From Myxococcota bacterium (lineage in GTDB: Bacteria; Myxococcota_A; UBA9160; UBA6930): 64,000 nt of DNA. The notes under the pieces are model-generated. The model worked only from the letters and a program-made list of their open reading frames with translations, ran no database searches and was not told the origin of the DNA. The translations under genes and the position numbers were made by a program. Location of the stretch: the NCBI GenBank assembly GCA_028285625.1, contig JANQOX010000019.1:80538-144537 (forward strand), written 5' to 3'. Shown piece by piece: positions 1 to 22,384 of the stretch. Position 1 is the stretch's first letter. Each line of letters starts with the position of its first letter.

Positions 1-114
1 GCGCCCTCCGAGTCGGCCCCGACGGCGCGCAGACACTCGCGCGTCGGCGCACCGTCGGCGCCCGCGGGCTACCCTGCGGCCGGGCGTCGGAGGGCGCCCG
101 TGGGGGGAGATCAC

Positions 115-4555: not shown

Positions 4556-4801
4556 CTCGGCCGTTCCCCTCCGTGCGGGCCGAGCCCGCGTCGGACCCGC
4601 CGGATCCGTTTTTTGCGATTGGAGCACGGCCATTGAAACCCGACGGGGGCCCAAACATCAACCGAATTGCGAACGAACCGACGACCGAACCCGTCGAACG
4701 CGTGTACGCGAACGAAGTGCCAACGCAAAGCGGTCGGCACCCAGGTGGGTGCCGGCCGCCGTAGCCTCGGGTGAGACCCCCGATCGGGGCCCGGGTTCAC
4801 C

Positions 4802-7800: not shown

Positions 7801-8191
7801 GATGGCCTCCGGTCACGCGCTGGGCCTGCCGCCCGTCGTTCCCGTTGCCGTACATGTTCACGCTGGGGAACATCCAGCAGCCGTGACGCCACACGCAGTC
7901 GTATCGGGCTTCGACGCGCGCGAACGCCGAGACCAGGTCGAACGGACCCCAGCCATCGGGCGCGATGTCGGCTTCGATCTCGAGATTGAGCGTGTGATAC
8001 CACTGCGTCATGTCGAGATCGTTCGCAGGGTGGAAGTCTTCTTGGATGGCCCGGAGGGTCATCTCGTAGTAGCCGTGGATCTGGAGACGTCCGTCCCAGA
8101 ACTCGAAGGCCTTCGCCTGCGACCCCACGAACAGCAACACCACCACCGCACAGACCAGCTGCACGGGGCGCACCCCGCGTGTTCCCCTCAT
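4802..8191 (-). CDS. DUF1302-family outer-membrane protein, long Cys-rich form (paralog 2)
   Basis: Paralog of 1622-4555 (RLGKQNIVWGKTELFRTTD, FINFLNANRTFFFNTQWFFQ, terminal RIRYTF); AGGAGG RBS. Confidence 0.7.
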   Translation of the reverse strand: MRGTRGVRPVQLVCAVVVLLFVGSQAKAFEFWDGRLQIHGYYEMTLRAIQEDFHPANDLDMTQWYHTLNLEIEADIAPDGWGPFDLVSAFARVEARYDCVWRHGCWMFPSVNMYGNGNDGRQAQRVTGGHRSGFSGNAFTGDVRQYNRVHDHDSLNSNDGRAGPRPGVGGPRPGDSRKVIGFPFIAGFEGFTSATARQDANTRLDPATNVWKQLGLFGKDKCYFNHQKTKGSANGNGVRVLGPWDPKCKIEGPDQARILPNPFKGTDGGGLSLPYRPAPNYRHFGPNGLVGGGRSLAGIDFKAPNSEAQGLFIPNHKLARRLSSGGFDSFDQNFNQDQLAWNHGASQKYWRELKELYVDLEMFDSRLWVRLGKQNIVWGKTELFRTTDQFNPQDLGLASLPSLEESRIALWAARAVWSFYEVGPLEDFRFEIALNFDKFEPTDLGRCGEPYSPLPVCDKSFGLTANNVVGLGLAGEVRPPKPWDDISGIEIGARIEFRYDRFSVAISDWYGYGDGGIAERLFNYSRNVDPLSGRPRKGSELDNQRRCKNGAGEACLGVSESLSHASVNQQLFGVICATTVGFSDLDPTACALNVFNSKNIASGFPIANALALVMGGQNGFGNAFSGAAIHAALGGFNARTYAALARFPNVQRFLGGFVAAIPDGCAGTAFLGSCPTPLVPLSRDPQDGPFTPLTGLLAPFGPSQLSAYLTDEQEALLGCGPFYRTNCDNDGIDLMNAEASAILQAFPLIDSTETFNYQKNGNPWDTTNRRLAQPGTRGFGGATPCTRFERGRAFILPGCRGPGDPGYSINKDGSLTGPDVTSFTVPGGIPGSPRVHPFTGQNFRSEMAIFSWNFLMLLVTNSTASDGTGFDPNNAMGANRCSFRNPGLCSAVSSFLAVTGVGRPDVRAGGSGSFGRRDFIWAGGAQLYLRYEKRNVFGVSVDFAEDVSKSNWSFEFTYIEGQPFSTVDEADGLRDVDTFNLTVSADRPTFINFLNANRTFFFNTQWFFQYINSYTKGHTSNGPWNVFFTFAVNTGYFQDRLLPSLVFVYDFGSNSGAILPQVTYRFNEAFSASVGLGIFGGRQEQRSLAWRPSSIGNSIGGTRNSTFVENGLSAIRERDEIFLRIRYTF

Positions 8192-8292
8192 GACCCCTCC
8201 TGCTGCCCGGATTGCGTGCGCCCGAGCAAGGCGCGTTCCCCCGGTCGGTCAGGCGGGCCATCGGCCCGTTCCCCCCTGTCCAACCATCTGCA

Positions 8293-8321
8293 TTTATACG
8301 CGGAACCCGCTGCCGAAACAA
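8293..8321 (-). promoter_or_regulatory. Putative sigma70 promoter for the DUF1302 genes
   Basis: Minus strand TTGTTT-17 nt-TATAAA in an AT-richer patch about 100 bp upstream of ATG8191. Confidence 0.5.
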
Positions 8322-8366
8322 TGGGATTTCGTGGCCGACCGCCCCACGGTCGCCACCCGACCGGCC

Positions 8367-11234
8367 TCAGTCGGTCTCGGCCCCCTTGCCGCGGCGCGTC
8401 GAAGTCGTGCCGTCTTCCCCCTTGGTCTCGCGCGACTTCGTCGCCTTTGCGGTCTTCTTTCGCGTCGTCTTCTTGGTCGCGGCCTTCTTCCGGGTGCCAC
8501 TCTTTCGGGCAGCCGTCTTCTTCCGCGTCGTCGTCTTCTTCTTCGTGGTCTTCTTGCGGGTGGTCTTGGCCCCGGTCTTCTTTCGGGTCTTCTTCGTGGT
8601 GGGTTTCTCACCCGAGTCGTCCCCGTCGCTCTTCTTGGTGCGCGGCGGGAACTCGAACCCATGACGCCCCGTGTCCTTCAGCACCAACGTCGCCGAGAAG
8701 GGCCGACCGAACCGCGACGTGAAATCGGTCAGCAGTTCCGTCTTCCCTTCCCGCAGATACACCTCCGCCTCGTCCCGCGTGATCTCCCGCTTGCAGACCG
8801 TTCTCGGCAGCACCCATCCCGGATGGGGCGGCTTCTCGGGCTTGGTCGGGCTCGGGCCCTTGCCCTCGCGCGCCAGCCGCCGGGCCTCTCGCCAGGCCGC
8901 AGTTTCCTTTTCGGCACGAACCCACGTGGCACAAGCAAAATGCGTCGGCGTCTCGCCCACCTGGCAGGGCTCGCTCACGTCGCCGAACGGGCAGGCGCCG
9001 AGGGGCTGATCGTTGACGTCGTACTCCGGAAGCTCGCCGCTTCCGTCCTCGTTCCAGCCGGCCGAACGCACCTTGAGCTTCCACTCGTCGATGTCGATCT
9101 CGATCTCGCCCTTGTAGGTGCGGCCGTTGCGCGCCGTGAACCCGTCGAGGAGCACCGGCTTGCCCTTCGCATCGATGATGGCGCGCACCGAGCGGCGGTC
9201 GATGTAGCGGCCCGAGGTGTCCTTCCAGAAGCGCAGCGGGCAGTCGTCGTCGGGCTCGACGTCGGGAACCGGGTCGCACCGGTAGAACCAGGCGTACTCG
9301 CGCACCGGCCGTCCACAGCGCGGGCAGGGGCCGAGGTCCTCATCGAGTTCGTAGAGCTCTTCGTACTCGAAGGTCTTCGCGCGCTCGACCACCTCGCGGG
9401 CGTAGTTCTCGATCTCGGCCATGAAGGCCTCGGCCTGGCGCTCGCCCTTCTCGACCTCGCCGAGCTGATGCTCGAGCTCACCGGTCAGCTGCGCCGATGC
9501 CAGGCGGTCGATCTGGATGCGCTGGAGCGTGTCGATCAGGCGAATGCCCTTCACGGTCGGGCGCAGGCTCTTGCCCTGGCGCAGCGCATAGCCCTTGGCA
9601 ATCAGGTTCTCGATGATGTCGGCCCGCGTGGCCGGCGTGCCGAGCCCCTTGTCCTGCAGGGCGGCGGCGAAGGCGTCGTCCTCGACGCTCTTGCCCGCGT
9701 TCTCCATGAGCGAAAGCAGGCGCGCTTCGCTCACCCGCGGAGGCGGCTTCGTCTCTTCTCGCTCGGACACCGCCTCGTTGGCCTTCACGGCCACGCCGTC
9801 CACCTCGTCCTGGCCCGGCACGAGCGGCGGCAGCGTCTCGGTCTCGTCGTCGTCGCCCCCGGGCAACACGGCGCGCCAGCCGGGCTCGCGCAGCGTGCGC
9901 GCGCGCGTTCGGAACGACTCGCCGCCCACCTCGGTCACGCGCTCCACGCGCTCCCACAGGGCGTGCGGATGGAACGCGCCCAGGAAGCGGCGCAGCACCA
10001 GGTCGTAGAGGCGCTTGTCGTCGCCCGACAGGTCGTCGCCCTCGGGGAGCTTTCCCGTGGGCACGATCGCAAAGTGGTCGGAGACACCCGCGTCGTCGAA
10101 GATGCGCTCGGTGTTCTGCAGTCCGGCGTCGAGCAGACGCGCCGCATGCGGCGCGAACGGCGCGGCCAACCCCTCGCTCGCGCCCTGGTAGTTGCGCAGC
10201 ACCTCGTCCACGGTGGCGCGGTAGTCGTTGGGAAGGCAGCGAGAGTCGGTACGCGGGTAGGTCAGCAGCTTGTGCCGCTCGTAGAGCCGCTGGGCCGCGC
10301 CCAGGGTGCGCCGCGCCGACCAACCGAAGCGCCGGTTGCCCTCGCGCTGGAGGCTGGTGAGGTCGAAGAGCGGCGGCGCCGACTCGCGGCTGGGCTTGCG
10401 CGTCTCGCGCGCCGCGCCGGCCTGGCCGGAGACCGCTGCCACCACCGCCTGGGCGCGCTCCTCGTCGAAGATGCGGTCGTCCTTGCGGTCCTCGTCGTCG
10501 TCGGCCCGGAACGCCGGGTCGAACCAGGCGCCCTCGTAGGTGGCGTCGCCATGCTGAAGCTGCGCCGTCACCCGCCAGAAGGCGCGCGGGGTGTGCGCCA
10601 GCACCTCGAGCTCTCGGGCCACGAGCAGCGCCAGCGTGGGGGTCTGCACCCGTCCAGCCGACCAGGCCGTGCGCTCCTTGCGGGTCTTCAGCCGCTTGGT
10701 GAGCGCGCGGGTCGCGTTCATCCCGATCAGCCAGTCCGAACGCGCACGGCACTCGGCGGCCCGGGCGAGGCCCTCCATCTCGGAGCCCGGGATCAGCGAC
10801 TCGAAGCCGCTGCGGATCGAGTCGGTGGTCATCGACTGCAGCCACAGCCGCTCGATGGGCTTCTCGATGCCGAGAAACTGCACCACCTCTCGGAAGATCA
10901 GCTCGCCCTCGCGCCCCGCGTCGCAGGCGTTCACGATGCGGTCGACGTCGTCCCGGGCGGCGAGCTTCTGGATGGTGCGGATGCGATCGCTCTGGCCCTT
11001 CTTCTTCTTGAGCGAGAAGCGCTCCGGAATGATGGGAAGGATGTCGAGCGTCCAGCGCTTGTACTTCTCGTCGACCTCTTCGGGCTCGAGCAGCTCGAAC
11101 AGGTGGCCGACGGCGAAGGTGACGACGTAGTCGTCGCTCTCCCAGAACCCGTCGAGTTCGGTAAAGCCACCGAGGGCGGCCGCGATGTCTCGCGCCACGC
11201 TCGGTTTCTCGGTCAGGACCAGGGCCTTGGCCAC
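8367..11234 (-). CDS. topB: DNA topoisomerase III (type IA) with C-terminal repeats and Lys/Thr-rich tail
   Basis: EKPSVA, NACDAGREGELIF, SAGRVQTPTL, LTYPRTDS (catalytic Tyr), GLGTPATRA; start GTG11234 (alternative ATG11246). Confidence 0.9.
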   Translation of the reverse strand: MAKALVLTEKPSVARDIAAALGGFTELDGFWESDDYVVTFAVGHLFELLEPEEVDEKYKRWTLDILPIIPERFSLKKKKGQSDRIRTIQKLAARDDVDRIVNACDAGREGELIFREVVQFLGIEKPIERLWLQSMTTDSIRSGFESLIPGSEMEGLARAAECRARSDWLIGMNATRALTKRLKTRKERTAWSAGRVQTPTLALLVARELEVLAHTPRAFWRVTAQLQHGDATYEGAWFDPAFRADDDEDRKDDRIFDEERAQAVVAAVSGQAGAARETRKPSRESAPPLFDLTSLQREGNRRFGWSARRTLGAAQRLYERHKLLTYPRTDSRCLPNDYRATVDEVLRNYQGASEGLAAPFAPHAARLLDAGLQNTERIFDDAGVSDHFAIVPTGKLPEGDDLSGDDKRLYDLVLRRFLGAFHPHALWERVERVTEVGGESFRTRARTLREPGWRAVLPGGDDDETETLPPLVPGQDEVDGVAVKANEAVSEREETKPPPRVSEARLLSLMENAGKSVEDDAFAAALQDKGLGTPATRADIIENLIAKGYALRQGKSLRPTVKGIRLIDTLQRIQIDRLASAQLTGELEHQLGEVEKGERQAEAFMAEIENYAREVVERAKTFEYEELYELDEDLGPCPRCGRPVREYAWFYRCDPVPDVEPDDDCPLRFWKDTSGRYIDRRSVRAIIDAKGKPVLLDGFTARNGRTYKGEIEIDIDEWKLKVRSAGWNEDGSGELPEYDVNDQPLGACPFGDVSEPCQVGETPTHFACATWVRAEKETAAWREARRLAREGKGPSPTKPEKPPHPGWVLPRTVCKREITRDEAEVYLREGKTELLTDFTSRFGRPFSATLVLKDTGRHGFEFPPRTKKSDGDDSGEKPTTKKTRKKTGAKTTRKKTTKKKTTTRKKTAARKSGTRKKAATKKTTRKKTAKATKSRETKGEDGTTSTRRGKGAETD

Positions 11235-11491
11235 GCAGGCTCCCATCCCCGAGGGGCTCTCGGGTTTCGATGCGTCTCGAAGCGCTCCAGTGGGTTCGGC
11301 GGATCACCCTTAGCCCGGGGGTTCCGGGCCAGCAAGTTCGCCCACATCCGCACACCCTTCGCACGCATCGGTCGGGGTACACCGGCAGAAACTTGAGCGG
11401 CCACCGCATGCAACGCCGTGGGTTGCGTCCGGATTGCGGCTCGGCGAGAGTCCGCGATCGCAGATTCCCACGCATCCACGAGGAGATAGGC

Positions 11492-12274
11492 TTGAGCGAC
11501 GCCCAGCCGATCACCGGCCTCACGGCCGACCGAATCGCCCCCTACGTGTTCCTTTGCGGAGACCCCGCCCGGGTCGATCGCATCACCGAGGGCTGGTCCG
11601 ACCGCGAAGAGGTGCTCTCGGTGCGCGAGTACCGGATGATCCGGGGCAAGCGGGGCGGAATCCCCATGGCTGCCGCCTCCACCGGAATCGGCGCACCGAG
11701 CACGGCCATCCTCGTCGAAGAGCTGGTCAAGCTCGGCGCCCATACCTTCATTCGCATCGGCAACAGCGGTGGACTCGCACCCGACCTCGGGCTGGGCGAC
11801 CTGGTCGTGACGACCGGGGCGGTCCGCGACGACGGAACCTCACGCAGCTACGTCGCGCCCGAGTACCCGGCGGTGGCCGATGCCGGCATCGTCCAGGCGC
11901 TGCTCGGCGCGGCGGAGGGCCGCGGGCTCGCGTGCCGCGCGGGCATCACCTGGTCGCTCGACGCGTTCTACATGCGCAACGCCGTGCTCGAAGACGACGG
12001 CAGCATGGGCTCCATGAGTGTCGAGGGCTACTGGCCGCGCGCGCATGCCGCCCAGATCGAGGACATGCGCGCCGCGCGCGTGCAGAACTGCGAGATGGAG
12101 TCCGGCGCCCTGCTGACCCTGGCGGGGATCTTCGGCGTTCGCGCCGGCTGCATCTGCGTCGTGTCCGACCGCACCCCGTGGCCCGGCCCCGCCGAGATCG
12201 ACCTGGACCGCAACATGGGCCAGTGCATCGAGGTCGCGCTCGCGGCGATGGACGAGGTGGCCGGCCAGGGCTAG
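11492..12274 (+). CDS. Nucleoside phosphorylase (uridine phosphorylase family)
   Basis: GDPARV, STGIGAPS, FIRIGNSG, AVRDDGTS, EMESG; TTG start after AGGAG RBS. Confidence 0.85.
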   Translation: MSDAQPITGLTADRIAPYVFLCGDPARVDRITEGWSDREEVLSVREYRMIRGKRGGIPMAAASTGIGAPSTAILVEELVKLGAHTFIRIGNSGGLAPDLGLGDLVVTTGAVRDDGTSRSYVAPEYPAVADAGIVQALLGAAEGRGLACRAGITWSLDAFYMRNAVLEDDGSMGSMSVEGYWPRAHAAQIEDMRAARVQNCEMESGALLTLAGIFGVRAGCICVVSDRTPWPGPAEIDLDRNMGQCIEVALAAMDEVAGQG

Positions 12275-12987
12275 GCGGCGGGCTCGCGTCGCGCGCGCGC
12301 GTCGAGGAACAGGGCCGCAACCACGCAGAGCGCGACGACTGCGGGTCCGAGCGCGCCCCAGCCTTCGACTTCGGGCGGCGCGGGGAACCCATGCTCGGCG
12401 ATCGCGAGGTTCAGTCCCGCGTGGAGACCGAGCCCGAGCGTGATCGAGCCCGTGGCCCAGCGCAGTACGCCCAGTACGAGCCCCAAGGCGAAGGCGCCCG
12501 CCATCACCGCGGGGTGGAGATGGCTCACGGCGAACAAGGCCGCCGTCCCGACCACCGCCGCGATGGCGCCGAACCGGCGCAGCGCCGGGGCGAATACGAT
12601 CTGGCGGTACAGCGTCTCTTCGCACAGCGGCGCCAGCACCACCAGCACGACCCAAGCGGCCCAGCCAGGCGTCGAGGCGGACTGTGGGTACGCCAAGCCC
12701 GCGTCCGCCGCCGCTGCCGCCAGACATTGCGAGCCCAGCGGCAGCACCTCGAGGCCTGCGACCAACATGAGACCCGCGGCGGCGCCGGACATCGCGGGTA
12801 CCCGGCGCAAGCGTCCGGGCTCGCGCCAGAGCACGAGCGCGGCGGCCCCCGCGAACGCGAGCAAACGAGCCGTGTCCCGCCCCAGCACCGGCTCGAGGCC
12901 CAGGCCCACGGCGAGCAGTGCCCACACGGAGAGCAGGACGACCAACGCCTCTCCGAACCCAGCCTCCTGGATCTCCCCTTTGCTCAT
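12271..12987 (-). CDS. CPBP (type II CAAX/Abi) family intramembrane glutamic endopeptidase
   Basis: Multi-TM; APLCEETLYR (EExxxR), FAVSH (FxxxH), HAGLN (HxxxN); ATG12987 overlaps Rhs stop as ATGA. Confidence 0.85.
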   Translation of the reverse strand: MSKGEIQEAGFGEALVVLLSVWALLAVGLGLEPVLGRDTARLLAFAGAAALVLWREPGRLRRVPAMSGAAAGLMLVAGLEVLPLGSQCLAAAAADAGLAYPQSASTPGWAAWVVLVVLAPLCEETLYRQIVFAPALRRFGAIAAVVGTAALFAVSHLHPAVMAGAFALGLVLGVLRWATGSITLGLGLHAGLNLAIAEHGFPAPPEVEGWGALGPAVVALCVVAALFLDARARREPAA

Positions 12988-15900
12988 TCCCATTCTCCGG
13001 GTTGGCGTCGCGCGCGCCCGCCGACGCGGGCTGCGTGGGCGACGAGGACCAGGCTGAGGGGCGCCAGCAGCGGCAGCCAGGCCGCGAGTCCCGCCGGCGC
13101 CGCCGTGGCCGGACCGGCGCACCCGAATGCCAGGCCGCCGCCCGAGAAGTCGCCCAGCGACCCGAAGCCGCTCACCGCTCCGCTGGAGCCGCCGCGGCTC
13201 GATTCTCGCTGGCGCGAGGGCGGGCCCTGGTGGCGTGCCGGGCCCGGGCAGGCTCCTACGCAGCCCTTTTGTCGACCGACCGCCTGGCTGTTGGGCGAGA
13301 GCGCGCGTTCGGTGGGACGCGTGCCGTAGCCGGTCGGAGGGCCCGTTGCGCGTTGGCGGCCACCGTGGTGCGTGCGTACCCATGCCCCGGGCGAACCCGA
13401 GCGCGAGCGAAAGCCGTCCGGCGCCTCGGTCGGCTGGGTCCAGGCATCGTGATGGTGGTCGATGCTCGCGTCGACGCGCTGCCCGACCGCCCGCCCCGCC
13501 GCGGCCCCGGCGATGCCACCGGCGACCGCGCCCTTCGTGGTCTTGGTCAGCCCGCCTCCCGCGGCGGCGCCAACGATCCCGCCACCGTTCTCGAAGGCCT
13601 TGACCACGGCGCCGTCGGTCGTGTGCACGGGAGACAGGCCGCTCGGGTCGGAGAGCATCACGGGATTGCCCAGCGCGTACGCATGCTGGCTCAGCCACTG
13701 CGACACCGGGTCGGGTGCGAGAAACGAACCCGCCACCGGGTCGTACGGGCGATGGCCGAGCAGGACCGGATCGCCGGGCGCGTCGCCCAGGGCGAGGCCG
13801 CGCGCGAACGTGCGGTCGGTGGGATCGCCATGGCGAGCGTGCACGCCGTAGGCGTCGTAGTGCAGGAGCGTGCGTACGAGACCGGTGTCGTCGCTTACGG
13901 CCTTCACGTTTCCACGGAAGTCCAGGTGGCGATACCGGTTGGTGCGCCCGTTCAGGCCCAGCACCCAGTCGGTGCGGTCGAGTGCGCGCGGCGTGCCGCC
14001 GGCGTCGGTCTCGATCGCGCCGCCCCAGCCGAACCAGGACGCCGCACCCGCGACCTCGCGTTCGACGGGACGCCCGAACACATCCCACACGAACCGGTCG
14101 TCGCCGATGCGCGTCAGACGGCCCGCCGCATCGAAGGCGATCGACTCGGCGTCCCGGCCGACCGCGAAGCCCGCGGCGTCCCACGCATAGATGTGAGGGG
14201 TGTTGACGTCGTAGGCCCGTTGAAGCCGGTTGTGCTCCGCGTTCCAGACGAACGGGGTGCCCTCGAGGTAGTGCGTGCGATTGCCCAGCTCGTCATGCGT
14301 GTAATGGGAGATCGGCCACGTTCCCAGGAGGGGGAAGTCGCTGCCCACTCGCGAACCCACCGACCCGGCGCCGCCGAGCCAGTAGCGCTCAGCGACGCTG
14401 CCCACGAACCCCGCCGAGGTGGTCGTGGTCGCGTCCACCTCGATGTGGCCGAACCCGCCGGGCCGGATGGCCAGCGTCGAGCGCTCGACCTCGTTGCCGG
14501 CCACGTCGGTGGTGCGCAGTTGGGTGAGTGAACCCGTCTCGGCATCGAAGGTCGCGCGGCGCACGAGCCCGTTGCCGTAGGCGGTCTCGACCCGCCGGCC
14601 CGCCTCGTAGACATGGCCCACGAGCGACACGCCGTCGGCGGTCGTTCCGAGCGTCCGGTCGACCGCATCGTAGGTGTGGCCGAGCGTGACCACCGGCGTC
14701 CCGTCGGACGCCTCGAAGACCTCCGCAGTCACGCGGGAGCGCGCGTCGTACGACCAGCGCGTGACCTCGCCGCCGGGGTGCACCACGTGGTCGAGCCGCC
14801 CCGCCGCATCGTAGACGCGAGTCTCGATGCCGGCCCGGGCGGAGTCGTCGATGCTCGCCAGCTGCCTGCCCTGCCACCCGAACGTGGCCGCCGTTTCGAG
14901 CTGCCCGCCCCGCAGATGACGCGTGGCCACCACACGCCGGGCCAGATCGTGGTCCCATTCCTCCCGCATTCCATTCGCCCGGGTGCGATGGGCCAGGTTG
15001 CCCGCTGCGTCGTAGCCGAACGCCTCTACCTGGAAGGTCCCATTCACGCGCTCTCGGCGCTCGACCGGTCGACCCGCCAGGTCGTAGACGACCTCGAGGT
15101 CGCCGCCGTAGGGCCGCTCGATCCGCAGAACCTGCCCGTCGCTGCGGCGCACGATCCGCACGCCGTGGATCGGAGAACCCGCGAGGCCCATGGTCGTGGC
15201 CATGACGTGGAGTTCCACCAGTCGGCGCGCACCGTCGAAGCGGCGCGACACCAGCCCGGGCAGCCGGGCCTCGTGCCCGGGGTCCTCGCTCGCCACCACG
15301 TTGCCGACGGCGTCATAGGTGAACACCGCGTCGTGCTCGCCGCGGCCGACTCGCGTGGGGTGGCCGTGGTCGCCGTAGGCCTCGTACCGCACCACGCCCC
15401 CGTCGGGCAGGGTGTGCGACCCCAGCTCGCCGAGCGACCCCCAGACGAACGTCTCGACATCCCCCTCGCCGTTGGCCTGGCTCCGCATGCGGCCCGCCGC
15501 GTCGTAGGTGCGCACGAGCACGGGCCCGATCCTGTCGTCGATGCGCGCTACCGGGCGTGCGAAGGGGCGATCGAGGGCGATGGCATCGGTCGCGTAGGTC
15601 ACGGTGGTCGTGTTGCCGTCGGGTGTTTCGGTGACCAGCACGTCGGCCGAGGGGCGGGTATAACGCGTCTCGCCGAAGGGGCCCGTCTCGCGGGCCACCT
15701 CGAGGCCCTCCCACGCGAAGACCCAGTCGTCCCCGGTCGCGAAGTCCGTGCGCCTCAGAAGGCGCCGCTGCGCGTCCACGACCATCACCTCCTGCGCGCC
15801 GCCGGGGTGCGTGACGTCGGCGCGCATCCCGCCGCCCGCCGCCTTCGACCAGGCGAAGCCCAGCCCGGGCTCCGGCAGCCCCAGGCCGCGAACCTCGAGC

Positions 15901-16694
15901 AGGCGACCCGCGCCGTCGTAGTCGAACACCTGGGTTTCGCCCTCGGGGTTGGTGACGGAGCGGACCCGTGGGCCCCCATAGTCGATGGAGAGACCGGGCC
16001 CGCCGCTGGCCACGGACACGGGGCCGCGCACCGATCGCAGCAGGTCGGCGGCATCCCAGCTCAGCAGGGCGACCCGGCCCGCGCGGTCGTCCACCCGCAC
16101 CAGCCGCCCGACGGCGTCGTGGGTGAGGTCGAACACGTCCGAGCAAGCGGTCGCGGTCGTGCACTGCCGCAGCCCGACCAGTCCCTGGCCCGCTCCCACC
16201 GCCCCGCGCTCGTAGACGAGCCGCGGATAGGGGTGGCCAAGGGCGTGCGCGGCGGCGAGACCGCCATCCGTGCCAAAGGCGTGGACCAGGCCTCCGAGCG
16301 TCACCAGGGCAGTCGCGTCCAGCACCCGCCAGCCCGTTCCCGGAACGGGGTCGCCGGCAGCCAGCCCCGTGGTGTCATGTCGGCGCCCGTCGGCCGCGAC
16401 GAAGACCGTGCCGTCGTAGCGAGCGTCGAGACTCGTCCGCCAGGCCGCATCGGCAGAGCTCCACGCGAGCCCGAAGCCCAGGGTACCCAGCCGCGTATCG
16501 ATGGAGAGCAGCGGCAGCGCCAGGTGCAGCCCTCCGTCTGCGGCAGAGACCACGCCGTACGGGACGGGGATCTCGGTGGCCGCCTCGAAGGCGGCGCGCC
16601 CGACCTGCGGTCGCGGGACGGTCGGCGCGCCCCAGGGGCACGCGGTGACAAGGGAGGGGACCAGTCCGACCAACAGGATGGATGCTCGTCGCAA
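12984..16694 (-). CDS. Rhs/YD-repeat protein with N-terminal lipoprotein signal and C-terminal hydrophobic anchor
   Basis: Lipobox LVTA-C; many YDxxGR repeats; Rhs core HRPYDPVAGSFLAPDP...YALGNPVMLSDPSGL; 216-aa C-terminal extension. Confidence 0.9.
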   Translation of the reverse strand: MRRASILLVGLVPSLVTACPWGAPTVPRPQVGRAAFEAATEIPVPYGVVSAADGGLHLALPLLSIDTRLGTLGFGLAWSSADAAWRTSLDARYDGTVFVAADGRRHDTTGLAAGDPVPGTGWRVLDATALVTLGGLVHAFGTDGGLAAAHALGHPYPRLVYERGAVGAGQGLVGLRQCTTATACSDVFDLTHDAVGRLVRVDDRAGRVALLSWDAADLLRSVRGPVSVASGGPGLSIDYGGPRVRSVTNPEGETQVFDYDGAGRLLEVRGLGLPEPGLGFAWSKAAGGGMRADVTHPGGAQEVMVVDAQRRLLRRTDFATGDDWVFAWEGLEVARETGPFGETRYTRPSADVLVTETPDGNTTTVTYATDAIALDRPFARPVARIDDRIGPVLVRTYDAAGRMRSQANGEGDVETFVWGSLGELGSHTLPDGGVVRYEAYGDHGHPTRVGRGEHDAVFTYDAVGNVVASEDPGHEARLPGLVSRRFDGARRLVELHVMATTMGLAGSPIHGVRIVRRSDGQVLRIERPYGGDLEVVYDLAGRPVERRERVNGTFQVEAFGYDAAGNLAHRTRANGMREEWDHDLARRVVATRHLRGGQLETAATFGWQGRQLASIDDSARAGIETRVYDAAGRLDHVVHPGGEVTRWSYDARSRVTAEVFEASDGTPVVTLGHTYDAVDRTLGTTADGVSLVGHVYEAGRRVETAYGNGLVRRATFDAETGSLTQLRTTDVAGNEVERSTLAIRPGGFGHIEVDATTTTSAGFVGSVAERYWLGGAGSVGSRVGSDFPLLGTWPISHYTHDELGNRTHYLEGTPFVWNAEHNRLQRAYDVNTPHIYAWDAAGFAVGRDAESIAFDAAGRLTRIGDDRFVWDVFGRPVEREVAGAASWFGWGGAIETDAGGTPRALDRTDWVLGLNGRTNRYRHLDFRGNVKAVSDDTGLVRTLLHYDAYGVHARHGDPTDRTFARGLALGDAPGDPVLLGHRPYDPVAGSFLAPDPVSQWLSQHAYALGNPVMLSDPSGLSPVHTTDGAVVKAFENGGGIVGAAAGGGLTKTTKGAVAGGIAGAAAGRAVGQRVDASIDHHHDAWTQPTEAPDGFRSRSGSPGAWVRTHHGGRQRATGPPTGYGTRPTERALSPNSQAVGRQKGCVGACPGPARHQGPPSRQRESSRGGSSGAVSGFGSLGDFSGGGLAFGCAGPATAAPAGLAAWLPLLAPLSLVLVAHAARVGGRARRQPGEWE

Positions 16695-16847
16695 GACACG
16701 GCTCGCCGGGGCAGCCGGGGTGCGGACGAACAGCGTGCCTGGCGCGCGCGGGCGCCGAAAGCACCGGGTCCGGTCGCGTGCGAGCGCAGGCGGTCGGATT
16801 CGGACGCGACCGGACGGCCGAGCCGCCCGGTCGATCCGAAGTGGCGG

Positions 16848-18149
16848 CTACTCCACCAGGTCGACGGGCACCGCGTTCAGGTTCCAGGTGAGGACACTGG
16901 CGCCGTCGGTGCGCTTGAAGATGACCTCGCGATCGAAGCCGCTCCCGGACCAGCGGTAGCGACGGATCTCGGCGTCGTCGTCGCTGGCCACGTAGAGCTC
17001 GTCCTTGCCGTCGCCGTCGAGGTCGGTGAGAAGCGCCGCGTGCTCGAAGCCGTGCGACTTGGCGTCGATCAGCGTCTTGTCCCAGGTGGCGCGGGGATCG
17101 TCGCCCGGTCGCAGCAACCAGAGGCCGGTGTCCTTGGCGGCCAGGACCATCTCCTTCTTGCCGTCGCCGTCCACGTCACCGGCGGTGAGGAAGCGCGCCA
17201 TGGGATCGGTGACCGTGGCGATGGCCGCGCCCTCGTCGGCGGCGTCGTCGCCCTCGAAGCGCCGCACCTCGAGGTCGCCGCCCTGGGCGGCTTCGATCGA
17301 CACGTAGAGTTCGTCGCGGCCGTCGCCGTCGACGTCGTCCACCAGGATCTCCTTGGCGTGGCGGTCGCCGAGGTCGGCCACCTCGACGCGGCCCTCCCCC
17401 TTGGCGGGCACGTAGCGCACCACCGAGCCGTGCTGCGGCGTGCCGTCGAGCCGGTTGGGCTCGCTCGGCGTCGCGTAGACCTCGGGCACGCCGTCGCCAT
17501 CGAGGTCGCCGATCTCGATCTCGTGGACGAACGTCGAGGGCTCGGCGTCGATCTCGGTCACCTCGTAGCCGCCGCCCGCCTGGGGGCGGATCACGGCGAC
17601 GACACCCTGGTCGTGGGTCGCCACGGCCAGGTCCATGATGCCGTCGCCGAACAGGTCGGCCTGCTCGGCATCGCGCATGCGCGAGAACTTGCCGCCAAAG
17701 TTCTTGGTCCAGATCGTCTCGACCGGCGCGAAGCCGTCTGCGCCCTTGCGCCAGAGCTTGAGCGTGGCCGCCTTGCCCGGGGCAGCCCCGGCGAGGGTGA
17801 CGACCCCCGGCTCGCCATCGGCCGGGGTGAACGGCATGGCCTTGTGGAACACGAAGGCCTCCGGGTCCTGGTACGAGGTGGCCAGCCAGCCGCCACCACG
17901 CGCCACCAGCACGATCAGCTCCGAGCTCGGCAGGGGCCGTCCATCGGGCCCCTTGGCGAACTTGGAGATCGACACCAGCAGGCCCTGGTCGTGATCCAGC
18001 GGCGCGTCGGCCGCAGGCGCGGCCGGGGCCGCTGCGGCGGCGGGCGCCGGCGCAGGGTCGGGGGCGCCCGCGGTGGGCGCGGTCTCTTCGCTGCCCCCGC
18101 AAGCGGACAGGACGAGGACCAGGGCGAGAGCGGAGAACCGGCGGGACAT
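16848..18149 (-). CDS. FG-GAP/VCBS repeat lipoprotein (beta-propeller)
   Basis: Lipobox LSA-C, Pro/Ala linker, five DxDGDG-type repeats (DLFGDG, DLDGDG, DVDGDG x2, DLDGDG); AAGGAG RBS. Confidence 0.8.
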   Translation of the reverse strand: MSRRFSALALVLVLSACGGSEETAPTAGAPDPAPAPAAAAAPAAPAADAPLDHDQGLLVSISKFAKGPDGRPLPSSELIVLVARGGGWLATSYQDPEAFVFHKAMPFTPADGEPGVVTLAGAAPGKAATLKLWRKGADGFAPVETIWTKNFGGKFSRMRDAEQADLFGDGIMDLAVATHDQGVVAVIRPQAGGGYEVTEIDAEPSTFVHEIEIGDLDGDGVPEVYATPSEPNRLDGTPQHGSVVRYVPAKGEGRVEVADLGDRHAKEILVDDVDGDGRDELYVSIEAAQGGDLEVRRFEGDDAADEGAAIATVTDPMARFLTAGDVDGDGKKEMVLAAKDTGLWLLRPGDDPRATWDKTLIDAKSHGFEHAALLTDLDGDGKDELYVASDDDAEIRRYRWSGSGFDREVIFKRTDGASVLTWNLNAVPVDLVE

Positions 18150-18350
18150 CGATGCGCACTCCTTCGGCGAGTCGGGCGAGTTCGGCGGATCAGGGCGAGC
18201 CGGGCGGATCCGGTGGATCGGCCGAGCGACGACCCCAGCGCCTTCGGCCGGACGGCCGGGTCGCTGGACGCCGGAATCGGCAGGGAGGGGTAGCAACTCA
18301 ACCCCTCCCCGGCTCGCCGGGCGCGACGGTGGGTGCGAGAATCCGCGCCC

Positions 18351-19658
18351 ATGGCCAAGGCACCGCTCCAGCCCCCGCGCGGGACCCGCGACTTCTACCC
18401 CGACGCCTTCCGCAGGCGGGCGTGGCTATTCGACCACTTCCGCGAGGTGTCCCGGCGCTTCGGCTTCGAGGAGGTCGATGCGCCGGTGGTCGAGCACGCC
18501 GAGCTCTACCAGCGCAAGGCCGGCGAGGAGATCGTCGACCAGCTCTACCACTTCGAGCTGCACGACCGGCACCTGGCCCTGCGCTCGGAGTTCACGCCCT
18601 CGCTCGCGCGCATGGTGATGGCCCGCCAGGGCGGCCTGCGGCTCCCGATCCGCTGGTGCGCCATCCCGCAGTGCTGGCGCTACGAGCGCATGACCCGCGG
18701 GCGCACCCGCGAGCACTACCAGTGGAACATGGACGTGTGGGGCGAACCCGACGTCACCGCCGAGGCCGAGCTGATCGCCGCCATCTTCTCACTGCTCGAC
18801 CGCGTGGGCCTCGAACCGGGCGACGTGCGCATGCGCATCAACAGCCGCGCCCTGCTGGACGAGAGCCTGCGCGAAGGCCTGCTCCGCGACCGGCCCGAGG
18901 CGTTCGAGCCCCTGTGCGTGGTGATCGACAAGCTCGACAAGGTGGGCGCGGACACCGTGGTCGAGCAGCTCGCCGACCCGGCCGGCGCCGTGGCGATCTC
19001 CGAGTCGGCCGCGCGCGAGGTGGTCTCCCTGCTCTCCGTACGCGACCTCGAAGAGGCGGCGAAGCGCGCACCCGAGGGCTCGCCCGCCATCGCCGAGCTG
19101 CGCCGGCTCTTCGACCTTCTCGAGGCCTACGGCGTGCGCGACCGGGTGGTCTTCGACGCTTCGGTGGTGCGGGGGCTCGCCTACTACACCGGGGTCGTGT
19201 TCGAGGCGTTCGATACCGCGGGAAGCCTGCGCGCGGTCTGCGGAGGCGGTCGCTACGACCGGCTGCTCGAAACCCTGGGCGGAAAGCCCCTGCCCGCGGT
19301 GGGCTTCGGCTTCGGCGACGCCGTGATCGGCGAGCTGCTCGAGGAGAAGAAGCGCTGGCCCGAGCTGCCGCGCGCCCTCGATGCCCTGGTCTACGCCTTC
19401 GGCGAGACCGAACGGCCGGCGGCGATCGGCCTGGCCAGCCGGCTGCGCGACGAGGGCCAGGCGGTCGAACTGGTGCTCGGCCGCCCGAAGGTCAAGCGCG
19501 CCCTGGCCGACGCCGACCGTGCGGGGGCGACGCGCATCTACCTGCTGGGGCCCGACGAAACCGCCCGGGGCGTGGCCCGGGTCCGCGACCTGGCCAGCGG
19601 CGAGGAACGCGACGAGCCCCTCGCCGGCGACGCACCCAACCCTGCGGGCATCGGCTAG
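18351..19658 (+). CDS. hisS: Histidine--tRNA ligase
   Basis: PRGTRDFYP, LRSEFTPSLAR, RGLAYYTG, GGGRYD, GFGFG. Confidence 0.95.
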   Translation: MAKAPLQPPRGTRDFYPDAFRRRAWLFDHFREVSRRFGFEEVDAPVVEHAELYQRKAGEEIVDQLYHFELHDRHLALRSEFTPSLARMVMARQGGLRLPIRWCAIPQCWRYERMTRGRTREHYQWNMDVWGEPDVTAEAELIAAIFSLLDRVGLEPGDVRMRINSRALLDESLREGLLRDRPEAFEPLCVVIDKLDKVGADTVVEQLADPAGAVAISESAAREVVSLLSVRDLEEAAKRAPEGSPAIAELRRLFDLLEAYGVRDRVVFDASVVRGLAYYTGVVFEAFDTAGSLRAVCGGGRYDRLLETLGGKPLPAVGFGFGDAVIGELLEEKKRWPELPRALDALVYAFGETERPAAIGLASRLRDEGQAVELVLGRPKVKRALADADRAGATRIYLLGPDETARGVARVRDLASGEERDEPLAGDAPNPAGIG

Positions 19659-19668
19659 CTTGGCGCCC

Positions 19669-21570
19669 GTGCACGGCTGGAGCGTGAAGGACAGCCTCGA
19701 GTTGTACGGGGTCCCGGCCTGGGGCCGCGGCTACTTCGACGTGCTCGACACGGGGCACCTGGCCGTGCGGCCCCAGGGTCCGGGCGGCCCGGCCATCGAC
19801 CTGCGCAACCTCGTGGACGACCTGCGCGGGCGCGGACTGCGCAGCCCCATGCTCGTGCGCTTCTCGGACGTGCTGGCGGGCCGCATCGCCTCCATCGCCG
19901 GGGCCTTCGGCGGCGCCATCGAGGCGTACGAGTACACCGGTCAGTACCGCGGCGTCTACCCGATCAAGGTGAACCAGCAGCGCCACGTGGTGGAGGAGAT
20001 CGTCTCGTTCGGCGCGGAGTTCGGCGTCGGGCTCGAAGCGGGCAGCAAACCCGAGCTGCTGATCGCCCTGGCCGAGCTCGACACGCCGGGCGCCCTGATC
20101 GTGTGCAACGGCTACAAGGACCGCGCCTACGTCGAGACGGCACTGCTCGCCCAGCGACTGGGACGGACGCCGGTGATCGTGATCGACCGCTTCCACGAGC
20201 TCGAACTGGTGATCAAGACGGCCAGCGAGCTGGGCATCCGGCCGCACCTGGGCGTGCGCGCGCGGCTCTCGTCGCGCGGCGCCGGCAAGTGGCAGGAGAG
20301 CACCGGCGATCGCTCCAAGTTCGGGCTCAGCAGCGCCGAGATCGTCGAGGCGGTCGAGCGGCTTCGCGCCGACGACATGGTCTCGTGCCTCGAGCTGCTG
20401 CACTTCCACATCGGCTCCCAGATCACGTCGATCCGGGCGCACAAGGACGCCCTGCGCGAGGCCAGCCGCATCTACGTGGGCCTGCACGAGCTGGGAGCGC
20501 AGCCCCACCTGTTCGACGTGGGGGGCGGGCTCGGCGTCGACTACGACGGCTCGCAGACGAACTTCCACTCGAGCAAGAACTACTCGGTGCAGGAGTACGC
20601 CAACGACGTGGTGGCGACGATCCAGCAGGCCTGCGACGAGGCCAGCGTCCCGCACCCCGACGTCGTGACCGAGGCTGGACGCTGGATGGTCGCCCACCAC
20701 TCGATGCTCGTATTCGACGTTCTCGGCGTGAACGAGGTGCGACCGCGTGGCGAACCGGCGCCGGTCTCGGCGGAAGACCCGCAGGTGCTGCAGGACCTGC
20801 AGGAGGTGCTCCGGACCGCCAACCGCAAGAACGCCACCGAGTGCTACCACGACGCCATCCAGCTGAAGGACGACGCCGCCGCACTGTTCTCGTTGGGCCA
20901 GATGGACCTGCGCACCCGCGCGCGCGTAGAGCGCCTGTTCTGGGCGTGCCTCGAGCGGATCCAGCGTTGCGCGCGCGAGCTGCCGCGCATCCCCGAAGAC
21001 CTCGAGGACCTCGAGAAGCACCTGGCCGATACGTACTACGGCAACTTCTCGGTCTTCCAGAGCGCGCCCGACCACTGGGCGGTGAAGCAGCTGTTTCCGG
21101 TGATGCCGCTCCATCGGCTGGACGAGCGCCCCACGCGACGCGGCGTGCTGGCCGACCTCACCTGCGACAGCGATGGCAAGATCGATCAGTTCATCGACGC
21201 GCACGACGTGAAGGACGTGCTCGAGCTCCACCCCTTCGACGGCCGGCCCTACTACCTGGGCGTGTTCCTGATGGGCGCCTACCAGGAGATCCTCGGCGAC
21301 CTGCACAACCTGTTCGGCGACACCGACGCCGTGCACGTCCGCCACGCGGGCGACGGGAACTACCAGGTCGAACACGTGGTCGAAGGCGAGCAGATCCACG
21401 ACGTGCTCGCCTACGTCCAGTACGACCAGAAGGCCCTGAAGGAGAAGGTGCGCCGGCTCTCGGAGCAGGCGCTTCGCCGCGGCGACATCTCGCTCGAGGA
21501 GTCGACCCGGCTGCGGCGTCGCTACGAGCAGGGTCTCTGGGAATACACGTACCTCGACCCCGACGCCTGA
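19669..21570 (+). CDS. speA: Biosynthetic arginine decarboxylase
   Basis: YPIKVNQ (PLP Lys), GLEAGSKPEL, HFHIGSQI, DVGGGLGVDYDG, DLTCDSDG, GAYQEILGDLHNLFG; start approximate. Confidence 0.95.
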   Translation: MHGWSVKDSLELYGVPAWGRGYFDVLDTGHLAVRPQGPGGPAIDLRNLVDDLRGRGLRSPMLVRFSDVLAGRIASIAGAFGGAIEAYEYTGQYRGVYPIKVNQQRHVVEEIVSFGAEFGVGLEAGSKPELLIALAELDTPGALIVCNGYKDRAYVETALLAQRLGRTPVIVIDRFHELELVIKTASELGIRPHLGVRARLSSRGAGKWQESTGDRSKFGLSSAEIVEAVERLRADDMVSCLELLHFHIGSQITSIRAHKDALREASRIYVGLHELGAQPHLFDVGGGLGVDYDGSQTNFHSSKNYSVQEYANDVVATIQQACDEASVPHPDVVTEAGRWMVAHHSMLVFDVLGVNEVRPRGEPAPVSAEDPQVLQDLQEVLRTANRKNATECYHDAIQLKDDAAALFSLGQMDLRTRARVERLFWACLERIQRCARELPRIPEDLEDLEKHLADTYYGNFSVFQSAPDHWAVKQLFPVMPLHRLDERPTRRGVLADLTCDSDGKIDQFIDAHDVKDVLELHPFDGRPYYLGVFLMGAYQEILGDLHNLFGDTDAVHVRHAGDGNYQVEHVVEGEQIHDVLAYVQYDQKALKEKVRRLSEQALRRGDISLEESTRLRRRYEQGLWEYTYLDPDA

Positions 21571-21577
21571 CCGAGCC

Positions 21578-22384
21578 TTGGCGCGTCCGCTCCGCATCGT
21601 CTCCTGGAACGTGAACGGCCTGCGCGCGTGCGCGCGCAAGGGCTTCGGCGACTGGCTCGCGCGTGACCGCGCTTGGCTGGTGGGCGTGCAGGAGGTGCGC
21701 GCCCTTCCCGAGCAGCTGCCCGACGAGATCGCCCGCCCTCGCGGCTGGCACACGCACTTCGTGGCGGCCGAGAAGAAGGGCTACAGCGGCGTCGGGTTCT
21801 TCGCGCGCCAGGCCCCCGACGAGGTGCAGACGAGCCTCGGAATCCCCAGCCTGGATCGCGAGGGACGCCTCGTGATTGCGCGCTTCGGCCGGTTGGTGGT
21901 GGCCAACGGCTACTTCCCGAAGGGCAGCGGCACGGCACGCGACAACAGCCGCGTGCCGTACAAGCTGCGCTTCTACCGCGCCGTCTTCGACCGCCTGGCC
22001 ACCCTGCGCCGGGGCGGCCGCCGGGTGCTGGTGATGGGCGACCTCAACACCGCCCACCGCGAGATCGACCTGGCCCGGCCGAAGGGCAACCGCGAGAACA
22101 GCGGCTTTCTCGACGTCGAACGCCGCGAACTCGACCGCTGGCTGGCCGCCGGCTGGGTGGACACCTTCCGCCGCTTCGAGCCGGGGCCGGGCCACTACTC
22201 GTGGTGGAGCCAGATGCCGGGCATGCGCGAACGCAACGTGGGATGGCGCATCGACTACATCCTCGCCTCGGCCGCGGCCATGCGCTTCGTGCGCAGCGCG
22301 TTCATCACGCCCGACGTACGCGGCTCGGACCACTGCCCGGTGGGCGTCAGCGTCGACGCCGGGATCCTCGGGGCCTCTTCGTAG
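21578..22384 (+). CDS. xth: Exodeoxyribonuclease III / AP endonuclease
   Basis: SWNVNGLRA, KGYSGV, GDLNTAH, GWRIDY, GSDHCP. Confidence 0.9.
   Translation: MARPLRIVSWNVNGLRACARKGFGDWLARDRAWLVGVQEVRALPEQLPDEIARPRGWHTHFVAAEKKGYSGVGFFARQAPDEVQTSLGIPSLDREGRLVIARFGRLVVANGYFPKGSGTARDNSRVPYKLRFYRAVFDRLATLRRGGRRVLVMGDLNTAHREIDLARPKGNRENSGFLDVERRELDRWLAAGWVDTFRRFEPGPGHYSWWSQMPGMRERNVGWRIDYILASAAAMRFVRSAFITPDVRGSDHCPVGVSVDAGILGASS

Follow-up and report, generated by a model that had tools for sequence, protein, structure and literature searches.

We analysed a 64,000-nucleotide stretch of the genome of a Myxococcota bacterium (GCA_028285625.1, contig JANQOX010000019.1, positions 80,538 to 144,537), referred to below as the window. 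Our subject is a gene for an Rhs/YD-repeat lipoprotein whose C-terminus resembles a tripartite sorting signal, and, overlapping its stop codon, a second gene that encodes a CPBP/Rce1-like glutamic intramembrane protease. An original prediction, made from the letters of the window, had described the Rhs C-terminus as a glycine zipper, a flexible linker and a MYXO-CTERM-like tail. Its core reading is supported here, although the strongest evidence, the overlapping CPBP gene, formed no part of it. The features of the two genes are:

12984..16694, minus strand: Rhs/YD-repeat lipoprotein gene, 1236 residues, TTG start, TGA stop at 12984-12986 (open reading frame list and translation)
16638..16694, minus strand: signal peptide and lipobox (LRRASILLVGLVPSLVTA-C19), from translation, with hydropathy window 4-23 at Kyte-Doolittle 1.6
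13635..13859, minus strand: RHS-associated core, PDPVS-x17-DPSGL, predicted aspartyl autoprotease and cleavage site (TIGR03696)
13635-13649, minus strand: DPSGL (translation)
13467..13586, minus strand: glycine zipper-like stretch (GGGIVGAAAGGGLTKTTKGAVAGGIAGAAAG), PF13488 and PF05433 below threshold
13143..13466, minus strand: low-complexity Gly/Pro/Arg/Thr linker (translation; codon-position GC flat)
13248-13268, minus strand: Cys pair KGCVGAC within the linker, conserved in the same-genus orthologue
12987..13142, minus strand: tripartite C-terminal tail GGGLAFG-C-AGPATAAPAG-LAAWLPLLAPLSLVLVAHAA-RVGGRARR-QPGEWE (translation)
13119-13121, minus strand: Cys1192 of the tail (translation)
13029-13088, minus strand: tail helix LAAWLPLLAPLSLVLVAHAA, 20 residues (translation; Kyte-Doolittle 2.04)
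13005-13028, minus strand: basic cluster RVGGRARR, six residues (QPGEWE) short of the end
12271..12993, minus strand: CPBP/Rce1-like glutamic intramembrane protease, 240 residues from ATG 12993 (PF02517)
12604-12621, minus strand: CPBP motif EETLYR (EExxxR)
12520-12534, minus strand: CPBP motif FAVSH (FxxxH)
12409-12423, minus strand: CPBP motif HAGLN (HxxxN)

The larger gene product is assigned to the Rhs/YD-repeat proteins with an RHS-associated core. PF05593 (RHS_repeat) matched six stretches of it (E 1.9e-28, Pfam scan), the YD repeats of TIGR01643 matched at E 3.8e-28 (NCBIfam scan), TIGR03696 covered residues 946-1020 as an RHS-associated core (35.3 bits, cut-off 32.5), and the solved relatives in the PDB are Rhs cores only (8qjd, E 9e-8). 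Third-position GC supports the Rhs frame over nearly the whole open reading frame, in DNA of 66-77% GC (500-base windows, 8000-22000 of the window). The motif DPXGX18DPXG and its catalytic Asp pair follow the description of Tse5 (PMC10684867); the pair (D359 and D380 of our alignment A2) is invariant in 23 of 23 aligned orthologues, and autocleavage is predicted. The Pfam scan matched no PAAR domain, so the protein lacks the N-terminus of a type VI secretion system (T6SS) effector, and Pfam and NCBIfam scans found no toxin domain of known family, so it does not classify as a polymorphic toxin. The C-terminal architecture is constant among the Rhs orthologues, and the downstream gene is a protease of varying position.

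Past DPSGL, 216 residues and the stop codon occupy 12984-13634, and every string quoted from them in the original prediction was found exactly as claimed, in translation and coordinates. No nuclease or deaminase motif had been recognised there, and no such family matched the 216 residues; the only matches were to two glycine-zipper models, both below threshold (PF13488, E 0.0013, 19.1 bits against a cut-off of 25; PF05433, 14.1 against 24.2). The predicted glycine zipper thus exists as a zipper-like stretch, but it stays under the Pfam cut-offs, and most orthologues have at this position a more hydrophobic, Gly/Ala-rich two-helix hairpin. The stretch in the window has a Kyte-Doolittle value of only 0.82, and the glycine zipper of one orthologue (G028) scores similarly in Pfam. 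In 61 of 65 distinct orthologue tails of all types, at least one hydrophobic 17-residue segment lies no more than 110 residues past DPxG. In the linker, Cys pairs of the form C-x(1-4)-C recur among orthologues (for example CGAEPC, CGC and CSC), and they often precede a short strand-like V/I-x-I-E/D-L element.

The last 52 residues have the layout of the tripartite Cys-type C-terminal sorting signals, which consist of a signature Cys, a helix and an Arg cluster at the very end of the protein (Haft 2023, bioRxiv 10.1101/2023.06.07.544157). The tail has a single signature Cys, and its helix contains three Pro. Only two 19-residue windows of the 1236 residues reach a Kyte-Doolittle value of 1.6, in the N-terminal signal (4-23) and in the tail helix (1198-1225), and these are the only segments hydrophobic enough for a membrane helix; the membrane segment proposed earlier for the tail is one of the two. 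At the N-terminus, a lipobox Cys stands behind a hydrophobic stretch in 23 of 24 aligned orthologues, which would fit lipoprotein processing at Cys19 and supports, at the level of sequence, the earlier suggestion that the protein is tethered at both ends.

The neighbouring gene encodes a member of the CPBP/Rce1-like glutamic intramembrane proteases (PF02517, E 1.7e-16, 60.7 bits against a cut-off of 22.4); its motifs EExxxR, FxxxH and HxxxN do not vary among the aligned relatives (27 of 27). The first of its two possible start codons, ATG 12993, is placed 10 nt within the Rhs open reading frame. An alternative start, ATG 12987 (238 residues), forms ATGA with the Rhs stop codon, a 4-nt overlap, and GGAG stands at 12995-12998, seven bases upstream of it. 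No promoter- or terminator-like sites were found at 11800-17200, including the Rhs-CPBP junction, and a PDB search with the CPBP profile gave no meaningful match.

A word-based protein search with residues 1015-1236 found only the Rhs protein itself, and relatives were therefore sought by genome searches. The last 404 residues of the Rhs protein were matched in 29 of 41 related genomes, and 27 loci were analysed, each with one orthologue of about 1160-1270 residues that aligns over nearly its full length at 33-41% identity. A search of GTDB species genomes with an eight-row alignment (A3) gave 74 more loci, almost all titled uncultured Myxococcota or 'Deltaproteobacteria' metagenome-assembled genomes; 60 of them (L071-L130) were analysed, and L131-L144, from other phyla at E 5e-11 or worse, were left out. 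The orthologues share a common plan of lipobox signal peptide, shell, PDP-x17-DPxG, hydrophobic stretch, variable linker and a C-terminal end in three forms. With duplicates removed, the relatives' and GTDB loci gave 72 distinct C-termini, and flanks of about 4-6 kb, where the contig allows, were examined for CPBP genes:

Type A (Cys-[SA]-P, short spacer often ending in Pro, helix LLPLQLLL, Arg cluster): 42 of 72 distinct C-termini; CPBP in the flanks of 23 of 42 loci
Type B (Cys-Gly-Leu-Gly-Phe-Glu, helix, Arg; assigned by motif): 7 of 72; CPBP in the flanks of 0 of 7 loci
No such tail: 18 of 72; CPBP in the flanks of 0 of 18 loci
Odd C-termini: 2 of 72; CPBP in the flanks of 0 of 2 loci
C-termini cut by the contig end: 3 of 72

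Type A was assigned by profile in 38 cases (21 of them outside the profile), by eye in three, and in one (G005) in the +1 frame past a poly-G run. The pattern Cys-[SA]-P..P..helix(LLPLQLLL)..RRR ends 18 of the 27 relatives' orthologues. In the alignment of these 18 tails (A1) the Cys is the only invariant column (18 of 18), and a Pro and a Gln within the helix are conserved; the 21 tails outside the profile scored E 1e-17 to 4e-5 against it. Thus, the tail of the original prediction is conserved in homologous Rhs proteins. When the 18-tail profile was run against the 28,750 open reading frame C-termini of the source genome, the window tail came first (E 6.4e-12; next 0.0057), and the type-A tail occurs once among these ends. 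The search for other bearers that had been proposed earlier therefore ranked the Rhs tail at the top and returned no second protein.

Two related genomes held irregular copies of the tail. In G005 (L048, ~4690-4900) the Rhs frame is lost in poly-G, and an intact type-A tail follows in the +1 frame, in a region with 81% DNA identity to G021; this is an assembly error or a real frameshift. In G030, a second open reading frame with a type-A end (E 6.6e-8) lies on the minus strand at the end of contig C46 (L149:9042-9320), followed by a gene for A6, an unnamed multi-span protein, and a high-scoring CPBP on the same strand. The full Rhs orthologue of G030 is on another contig, which ends 278 nt past its stop codon, so this may be a second copy or a split assembly.

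The second Cys tail, [AP]-C-G-L-G-F-E with a helix and RRRR (type B), ends at least 12 unrelated proteins of the source genome (examples are L059-L069, with G000:C1:13687-16701, C20:68453-70087 and C5:96932-98350 among them) and often has acidic double-disulfide repeats (NF033662) ahead of it. This tail takes the place of type A on the Rhs orthologues L047, L079, L101, L102, L107, L115 and L123. It matched no NCBIfam CTERM model and is probably another unnamed housekeeping sorting signal of the lineage.

Across genomes the CPBP gene tracks the type-A tail. No CPBP was found near any of the 27 loci without this tail. Its placement is free in the 23 linked loci, with six genes downstream on the same strand, 8-10 upstream on the same strand, six convergent and two divergent. 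The hairpin past DPxG is kept in 15 of 16 tail-less and 6 of 7 CGLGFE-type orthologues with no CPBP nearby; the presence of a CPBP is thus tied to the tail rather than to the putative membrane-active part. Two genomes, G014 and G024, share the synteny of the window (HisRS, FG-GAP, Rhs, uridine phosphorylase, topoisomerase III) and lack both tail and CPBP, and both are present in their genus-mates G021 and G005. Scored with a CPBP profile (A5), the best matches of the genomes were bimodal, with 16 of 41 genomes at 129 bits or more and 25 at 82 or less or without a match, 14 of the 16 high scorers having belonged to the profile's own alignment. Type-A Rhs tails occur in 15 of the 16; in the other, G009, neither an Rhs gene nor a tail was found, apart from a single weak tail match in a non-coding frame. 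The loci thus show, at the level of gene content, the pattern of a dedicated CTERM and CPBP pair, with about one client per genome and the CPBP often adjacent.

We consider it likely, by analogy with known systems, that the last 52 residues of the Rhs protein are a Cys-type tripartite sorting and anchoring signal and that the overlapping CPBP is its dedicated, myxosortase-like processing enzyme. The features in agreement are the invariant Cys, the conserved helix residues, the Arg cluster, the single client, a protease gene that overlaps the client's, and a GspD secretin encoded by the source genome (529 bits, over the cut-off). The pair fits the Cys-signal/CPBP pattern feature by feature yet matches no curated model, which leads us to regard the pair as a new family within a known type of system.

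Several results weigh against this reading. Its support beyond sequence and gene linkage is analogy, and toxin-immunity pairs classically have the same layout, a second gene directly downstream that overlaps the first. The scan with CTERM models that had been suggested earlier found nothing over cut-off on the window tail or 12 orthologue tails; the best matches below cut-off were a myxosortase-dependent phytase model, at its C-terminal end (E 0.093), and PVV-CTERM (E 0.31). TIGR03901, the MYXO-CTERM model (20-bit criterion), had no match at E<=10 on the Rhs protein, its tail or any of the 12 orthologue tails, and JDVT-CTERM (NF033191) had none on the window tail or the orthologue tails. A six-frame scan of the source genome with TIGR03901 (E<=1) gave 33 weak matches, four of them barely above 20 bits and none on the tail. 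The MYXO-CTERM-type tail of the original prediction thus stands as a Cys-helix-Arg layout but not as a match to that or any other CTERM model. The best NCBIfam matches of the CPBP are Cys-signal sorting proteases, all far below cut-off (MrtS, 34.4 against 130; MrtJ, NF033192, 34 against 75; Mrt_core, 19.4 against 100), so it belongs to no named subfamily. In a tree, the window enzyme fell just outside a weakly supported cluster (81/58) that holds 21 of 22 Rhs-adjacent CPBPs; placement by tree was dropped because the resolution was too poor.

The window tail and the linkage also have exceptions on the unfavourable side. The tail in the window reads C-A-G-P and has a helix without the Gln. With it and the same-genus tail left out of the profile it still ranked first, at only E 0.011 (next 0.034), and we therefore regard it as a divergent type-A copy. 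Nineteen of the 42 type-A loci have no CPBP in their flanks, some of them on short contigs, and in G017 the Rhs and CPBP genes lie 400 kb apart. The overlap between the CPBP profile and its high scorers belongs here too. Of the 25 low-scoring genomes only three (G001, of the same genus, G028 and G039) have divergent A-like tails, and these three are exceptions to the linkage. On the tree of Rhs shells at least eight changes of tail type are needed, but only three contrasts are well supported and independent; they went in the expected direction two to three times, were otherwise neutral and were never opposite (sign test, p 0.25-0.5), so that with three contrasts, and kin not being independent, the test is underpowered. 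Finally, A6 was not found in the source genome (91.8% complete), and the window thus holds a minimal two-gene form.

Many open reading frames of the source genome end in VPEP-helix-RRR and are PEP-CTERM-like (for example C26:51655-52710, C12:770212-770997 and C20:90539-91267). Two TIGR03901 match sites could be traced to scored tails, and both are PEP-CTERM-like; it is such ends, and not the Rhs tail, that yield the weak TIGR03901 matches. Membership of the Rhs tail in MYXO-CTERM was itself rejected: the helix has Pro, there is one Cys and no GCGC, there is one client, and the best Mrt_core score in the genome is at most 28.8 bits against 100.

From the known systems we infer CPBP cleavage, Cys modification, autoproteolysis, the final location (with it the surface anchoring of the released cargo suggested earlier) and the role of the glycine-zipper fragment, as a membrane-inserting payload or a tether. 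The Rhs precursor would be exported by Sec through its N-terminal lipoprotein signal (Cys19). The tail helix would stop transfer and keep the chain end in the inner membrane, with the Arg cluster on the cytoplasmic side and Cys1192 about 10 residues outside the membrane. Cys1192 would be modified, presumably with lipid, and the CPBP would remove the helix and the Arg cluster. The Rhs aspartyl autoprotease would cut after DPSGL, and a fragment of about 170 residues, made up of glycine zipper, linker and modified Cys, would no longer be covalently joined to the shell. Were the fragment retained in the shell as in Tse5, the linker would have to pass out of it, making the cargo a membrane tether for the shell.

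Related operons contain a candidate for the Cys modification. A6 (~260 residues) occurs in 12 of the 42 type-A loci and in 0 of the 27 others (for example L104:993-1781, plus strand, and L088:7018-7995, minus strand). It stands directly beside a high-scoring CPBP in 12 of the 41 related genomes and nowhere else in them. Besides Y-G-H and H-x-x-E-N, three further His are invariant in it. Searches of Pfam, NCBIfam and the PDB gave no match, and the Atlas lists it only as 'hypothetical protein'. An Lgt-like identity found no support in sequence, as 0 of 12 members matched any Lgt model (Pfam, NCBIfam, E<=10). That A6 might be the Cys-modifying enzyme is speculation.

A bolder extension of the preferred reading, which we put forward as a doubtful possibility, is that the Rhs cocoon is a T6SS-independent surface device held by its own cargo. 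The fragment would lie inside the shell, with the linker running out through the mouth to a lipidated, CPBP-trimmed Cys. The shell would shield a membrane-inserting peptide during export and present it for contact-dependent insertion into another cell, and the His/Glu-rich A6 of the related operons would be the Cys-modifying enzyme.

The overlap of the two genes could instead reflect immunity, the CPBP being an Abi-type immunity protein and the fragment past DPSGL a membrane-depolarising toxin like Tse5-CT, with the tail a part of the toxin or a mere anchor. The CPBP gene, immediately downstream and overlapping, is in the usual position of Rhs immunity genes, and CPBP/Abi proteins encoded downstream of bacteriocin genes have been proposed to act in self-immunity (Haft 2023). 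A glycine-zipper-like sequence does follow the cleavage motif, and encapsulation of a pore-forming C-terminal fragment by an Rhs shell is known (Tse5, PMC10684867). The downstream position of the CPBP gene is not kept, however: in 16-18 of the 23 linked loci it stands upstream of Rhs or in convergent or divergent orientation. Nor does the CPBP go with the supposed toxin, since none lies near the 27 orthologues lacking the Cys tail and the hairpin is kept in 22 of the 24 of them that were scored. The Rhs gene occurs in single copy as an orthologue whose one C-terminal architecture is conserved, with no swapped toxin domain, and family scans yielded neither a toxin domain nor another candidate immunity gene. 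We therefore regard immunity as unlikely.

Equally unlikely, in our view, is that the tail is a permanent inner-membrane anchor for a periplasmic shell and that the CPBP serves in regulated release, quality control or cleavage elsewhere, such as in the hairpin. A helix with an Arg end obeys the positive-inside rule, and the hairpin and final helix would together make a consistent three-span topology, but such an anchor needs neither an invariant Cys (18 of 18 in A1) ahead of the helix at a constant short spacing nor conserved Pro and Gln within the helix. Seven orthologues have moreover exchanged their tail for type B, the tail of at least 12 unrelated source-genome proteins, so the tail behaves as a modular sorting signal. 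A rhomboid protease gene directly downstream of Rhs in six type-A loci (L045:2270-3499, L048:4813-6153, L086:6887-8896, L089:6869-8260, L091:6908-8914 and L104:5281-6612; PF01694, E 9e-19 in the one scanned) is in favour of the anchor, and because of it more than one membrane protease may act on the Rhs protein. The source genome has only one weak relative, outside the window (C22:66130-66822).

We also considered whether the tail is real. Third-position GC follows the Rhs frame to ~13480 and again at 13170-13030, and is flat in the linker (13440-13210). The same-genus orthologue G001 has GR.KGCVGAC..GP in this frame (BLASTP E 2e-5) and also keeps CAGP..WLPLL.PL in frame, the linker between the two motifs being otherwise different. 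A Logan contig of sequencing run X1 spans 12200-14200 with neither a difference nor a gap; since X1 is probably the source sample, the contig counts as another assembly but not as another sample. X1, from one study, was the only run found with this stretch, and no RNA run was listed. An artefact, in which a wrong open frame in 72% GC DNA, a frameshift or a misassembly hides a true end soon after the glycine zipper, would explain the flat codon-position GC over 13440-13210, the resemblance of the Arg/Gly/Pro-rich linker to a wrong-frame translation of high-GC DNA and the return of only the Rhs protein itself in the word-based search (1 of 8000 scored candidates), but given the in-frame G001 motifs on both sides of the linker, the GC signal over the tail, the recurrence of the tail type in 42 orthologues, the identical second assembly and the coupling of the Rhs stop codon to the start of the following gene, it is excluded as far as sequence data allow, and the original prediction holds on this point.

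Other genes accompany the Rhs gene in the relatives or lie elsewhere in the window. A PMT_2-type glycosyltransferase gene is divergently upstream of Rhs in nine type-A loci of one subclade (L086, L088, L091, L097, L113, L114, L119, L121 and L122). An endonuclease/exonuclease/phosphatase-family gene follows the CPBP in five loci, and its homologue in the window lies 5 kb from Rhs (21578-22384). The FG-GAP gene upstream of Rhs (16848-18296) was dropped as a partner, being conserved beside Rhs only in G014. A DUF1329 protein (100-1593, plus strand) adjoins two long DUF1302-like proteins of 1010 and 1129 residues (1622-4654 and 4802-8191, both on the minus strand), in each of which ~80-100 residues match the model.

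Cys-containing tripartite signals have been described as MYXO-, JDVT-, Synerg- and CGP-CTERM, each with a cognate CPBP; dedicated one-client systems have the protease beside the client, and conserved residues inside the helix have been noted for signals read by intramembrane proteases (Haft 2023). Cleavage of such signals by a CPBP was a prediction of 2023; proof for one system came in 2025, when MrtX was found to cleave MYXO-CTERM in a Cys-dependent manner in M. xanthus and E. coli (Guo, Haft and Wall 2025, PMC11980579). The order proposed there is Sec export, helix anchoring, Cys lipidation by an unknown enzyme, CPBP cleavage and export through a type II secretion system (T2SS). If our reading is true, the pair described here would be a further family outside current models and the first such system with an Rhs shell protein as client. 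The two-gene form is small enough for co-expression in E. coli as used for MrtX, and the related four-gene operons offer a candidate for the Cys-modifying enzyme, which is still unknown according to PMC11980579.

JDVT-CTERM/MrtJ is like our system in having one invariant Cys, conserved residues in a Leu-rich helix and typically one client per genome, and in the frequent location of the CPBP-family protease gene beside its client (16 of 17 linked JDVT pairs adjacent according to Haft 2023; 23 of 42 loci here). The JDVT motif has a Cys with DP nine residues later, in place of C-[SA]-P..P..LLPLQLLL. JDVT-CTERM is said in PMC11980579 never to occur in Myxococcota, whereas our taxon is uncultured Myxococcota, and here the client is an Rhs lipoprotein with its tail on the part that autoproteolysis should release. 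MYXO-CTERM/MrtX shares with our system the phylum, the Cys-helix-Arg layout, a CPBP-family enzyme and a T2SS in the genome, and its working model (Sec, Cys lipidation, CPBP cut, T2SS export) supplies the mechanism proposed here. It is described as having no Pro or charge in the helix and a frequent GCGC (Haft 2023), in contrast to the three Pro and single signature Cys found here, and as serving dozens of clients through a housekeeping myxosortase, where we find one client and an adjacent enzyme.

A likeness on the side of the shell is Tse5 (RhsP1) of Pseudomonas aeruginosa, which has a YD shell, an aspartyl-protease motif and a non-enzymatic, glycine-rich or hydrophobic C-terminal fragment (PMC10684867, PMC9637101). 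Tse5 differs in its PAAR-like N-terminus and its firing by a T6SS, whereas our protein lacks PAAR and carries a lipoprotein signal peptide. The C-terminal fragment of Tse5 is described without a Cys-helix-Arg end. Abi/CPBP bacteriocin immunity, as cited in Haft 2023, resembles our locus in that a CPBP-family gene directly follows the gene of a membrane-active peptide, but in our loci the CPBP goes together with the sorting-type tail, not with the membrane-active stretch, and takes no fixed position relative to the Rhs gene.

Rhs toxins have been described as fired by a T6SS or as large Sec-dependent surface proteins with polymorphic toxin ends, and how Sec-exported Rhs proteins are retained on diderm cells is given as unknown in PMC10433427. 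The literature searched on Rhs/YD-repeat proteins, taken without preprint supplements, held no link to CTERM-type signals or CPBP; the term 'Rhs' has 0 occurrences in the text of Haft 2023, whose closed supplements may list such clients, and Rhs anchoring of the kind proposed here is not described in the literature searched. Because the sorting signal sits on the fragment that autoproteolysis would release, cargo and shell would be anchored separately, which would alter the picture of Rhs payload release. The Sec-dependent, T6SS-independent Rhs proteins of Myxococcus xanthus kin discrimination (PMC10433427) likewise have signal peptides and are thought to be surface-located. They are described there as ~4000 residues long, polymorphic and prophage-borne, with no anchoring signal named, whereas the proteins of this family are ~1200 residues long, single-copy and conserved, and carry an explicit anchoring signal at both ends.

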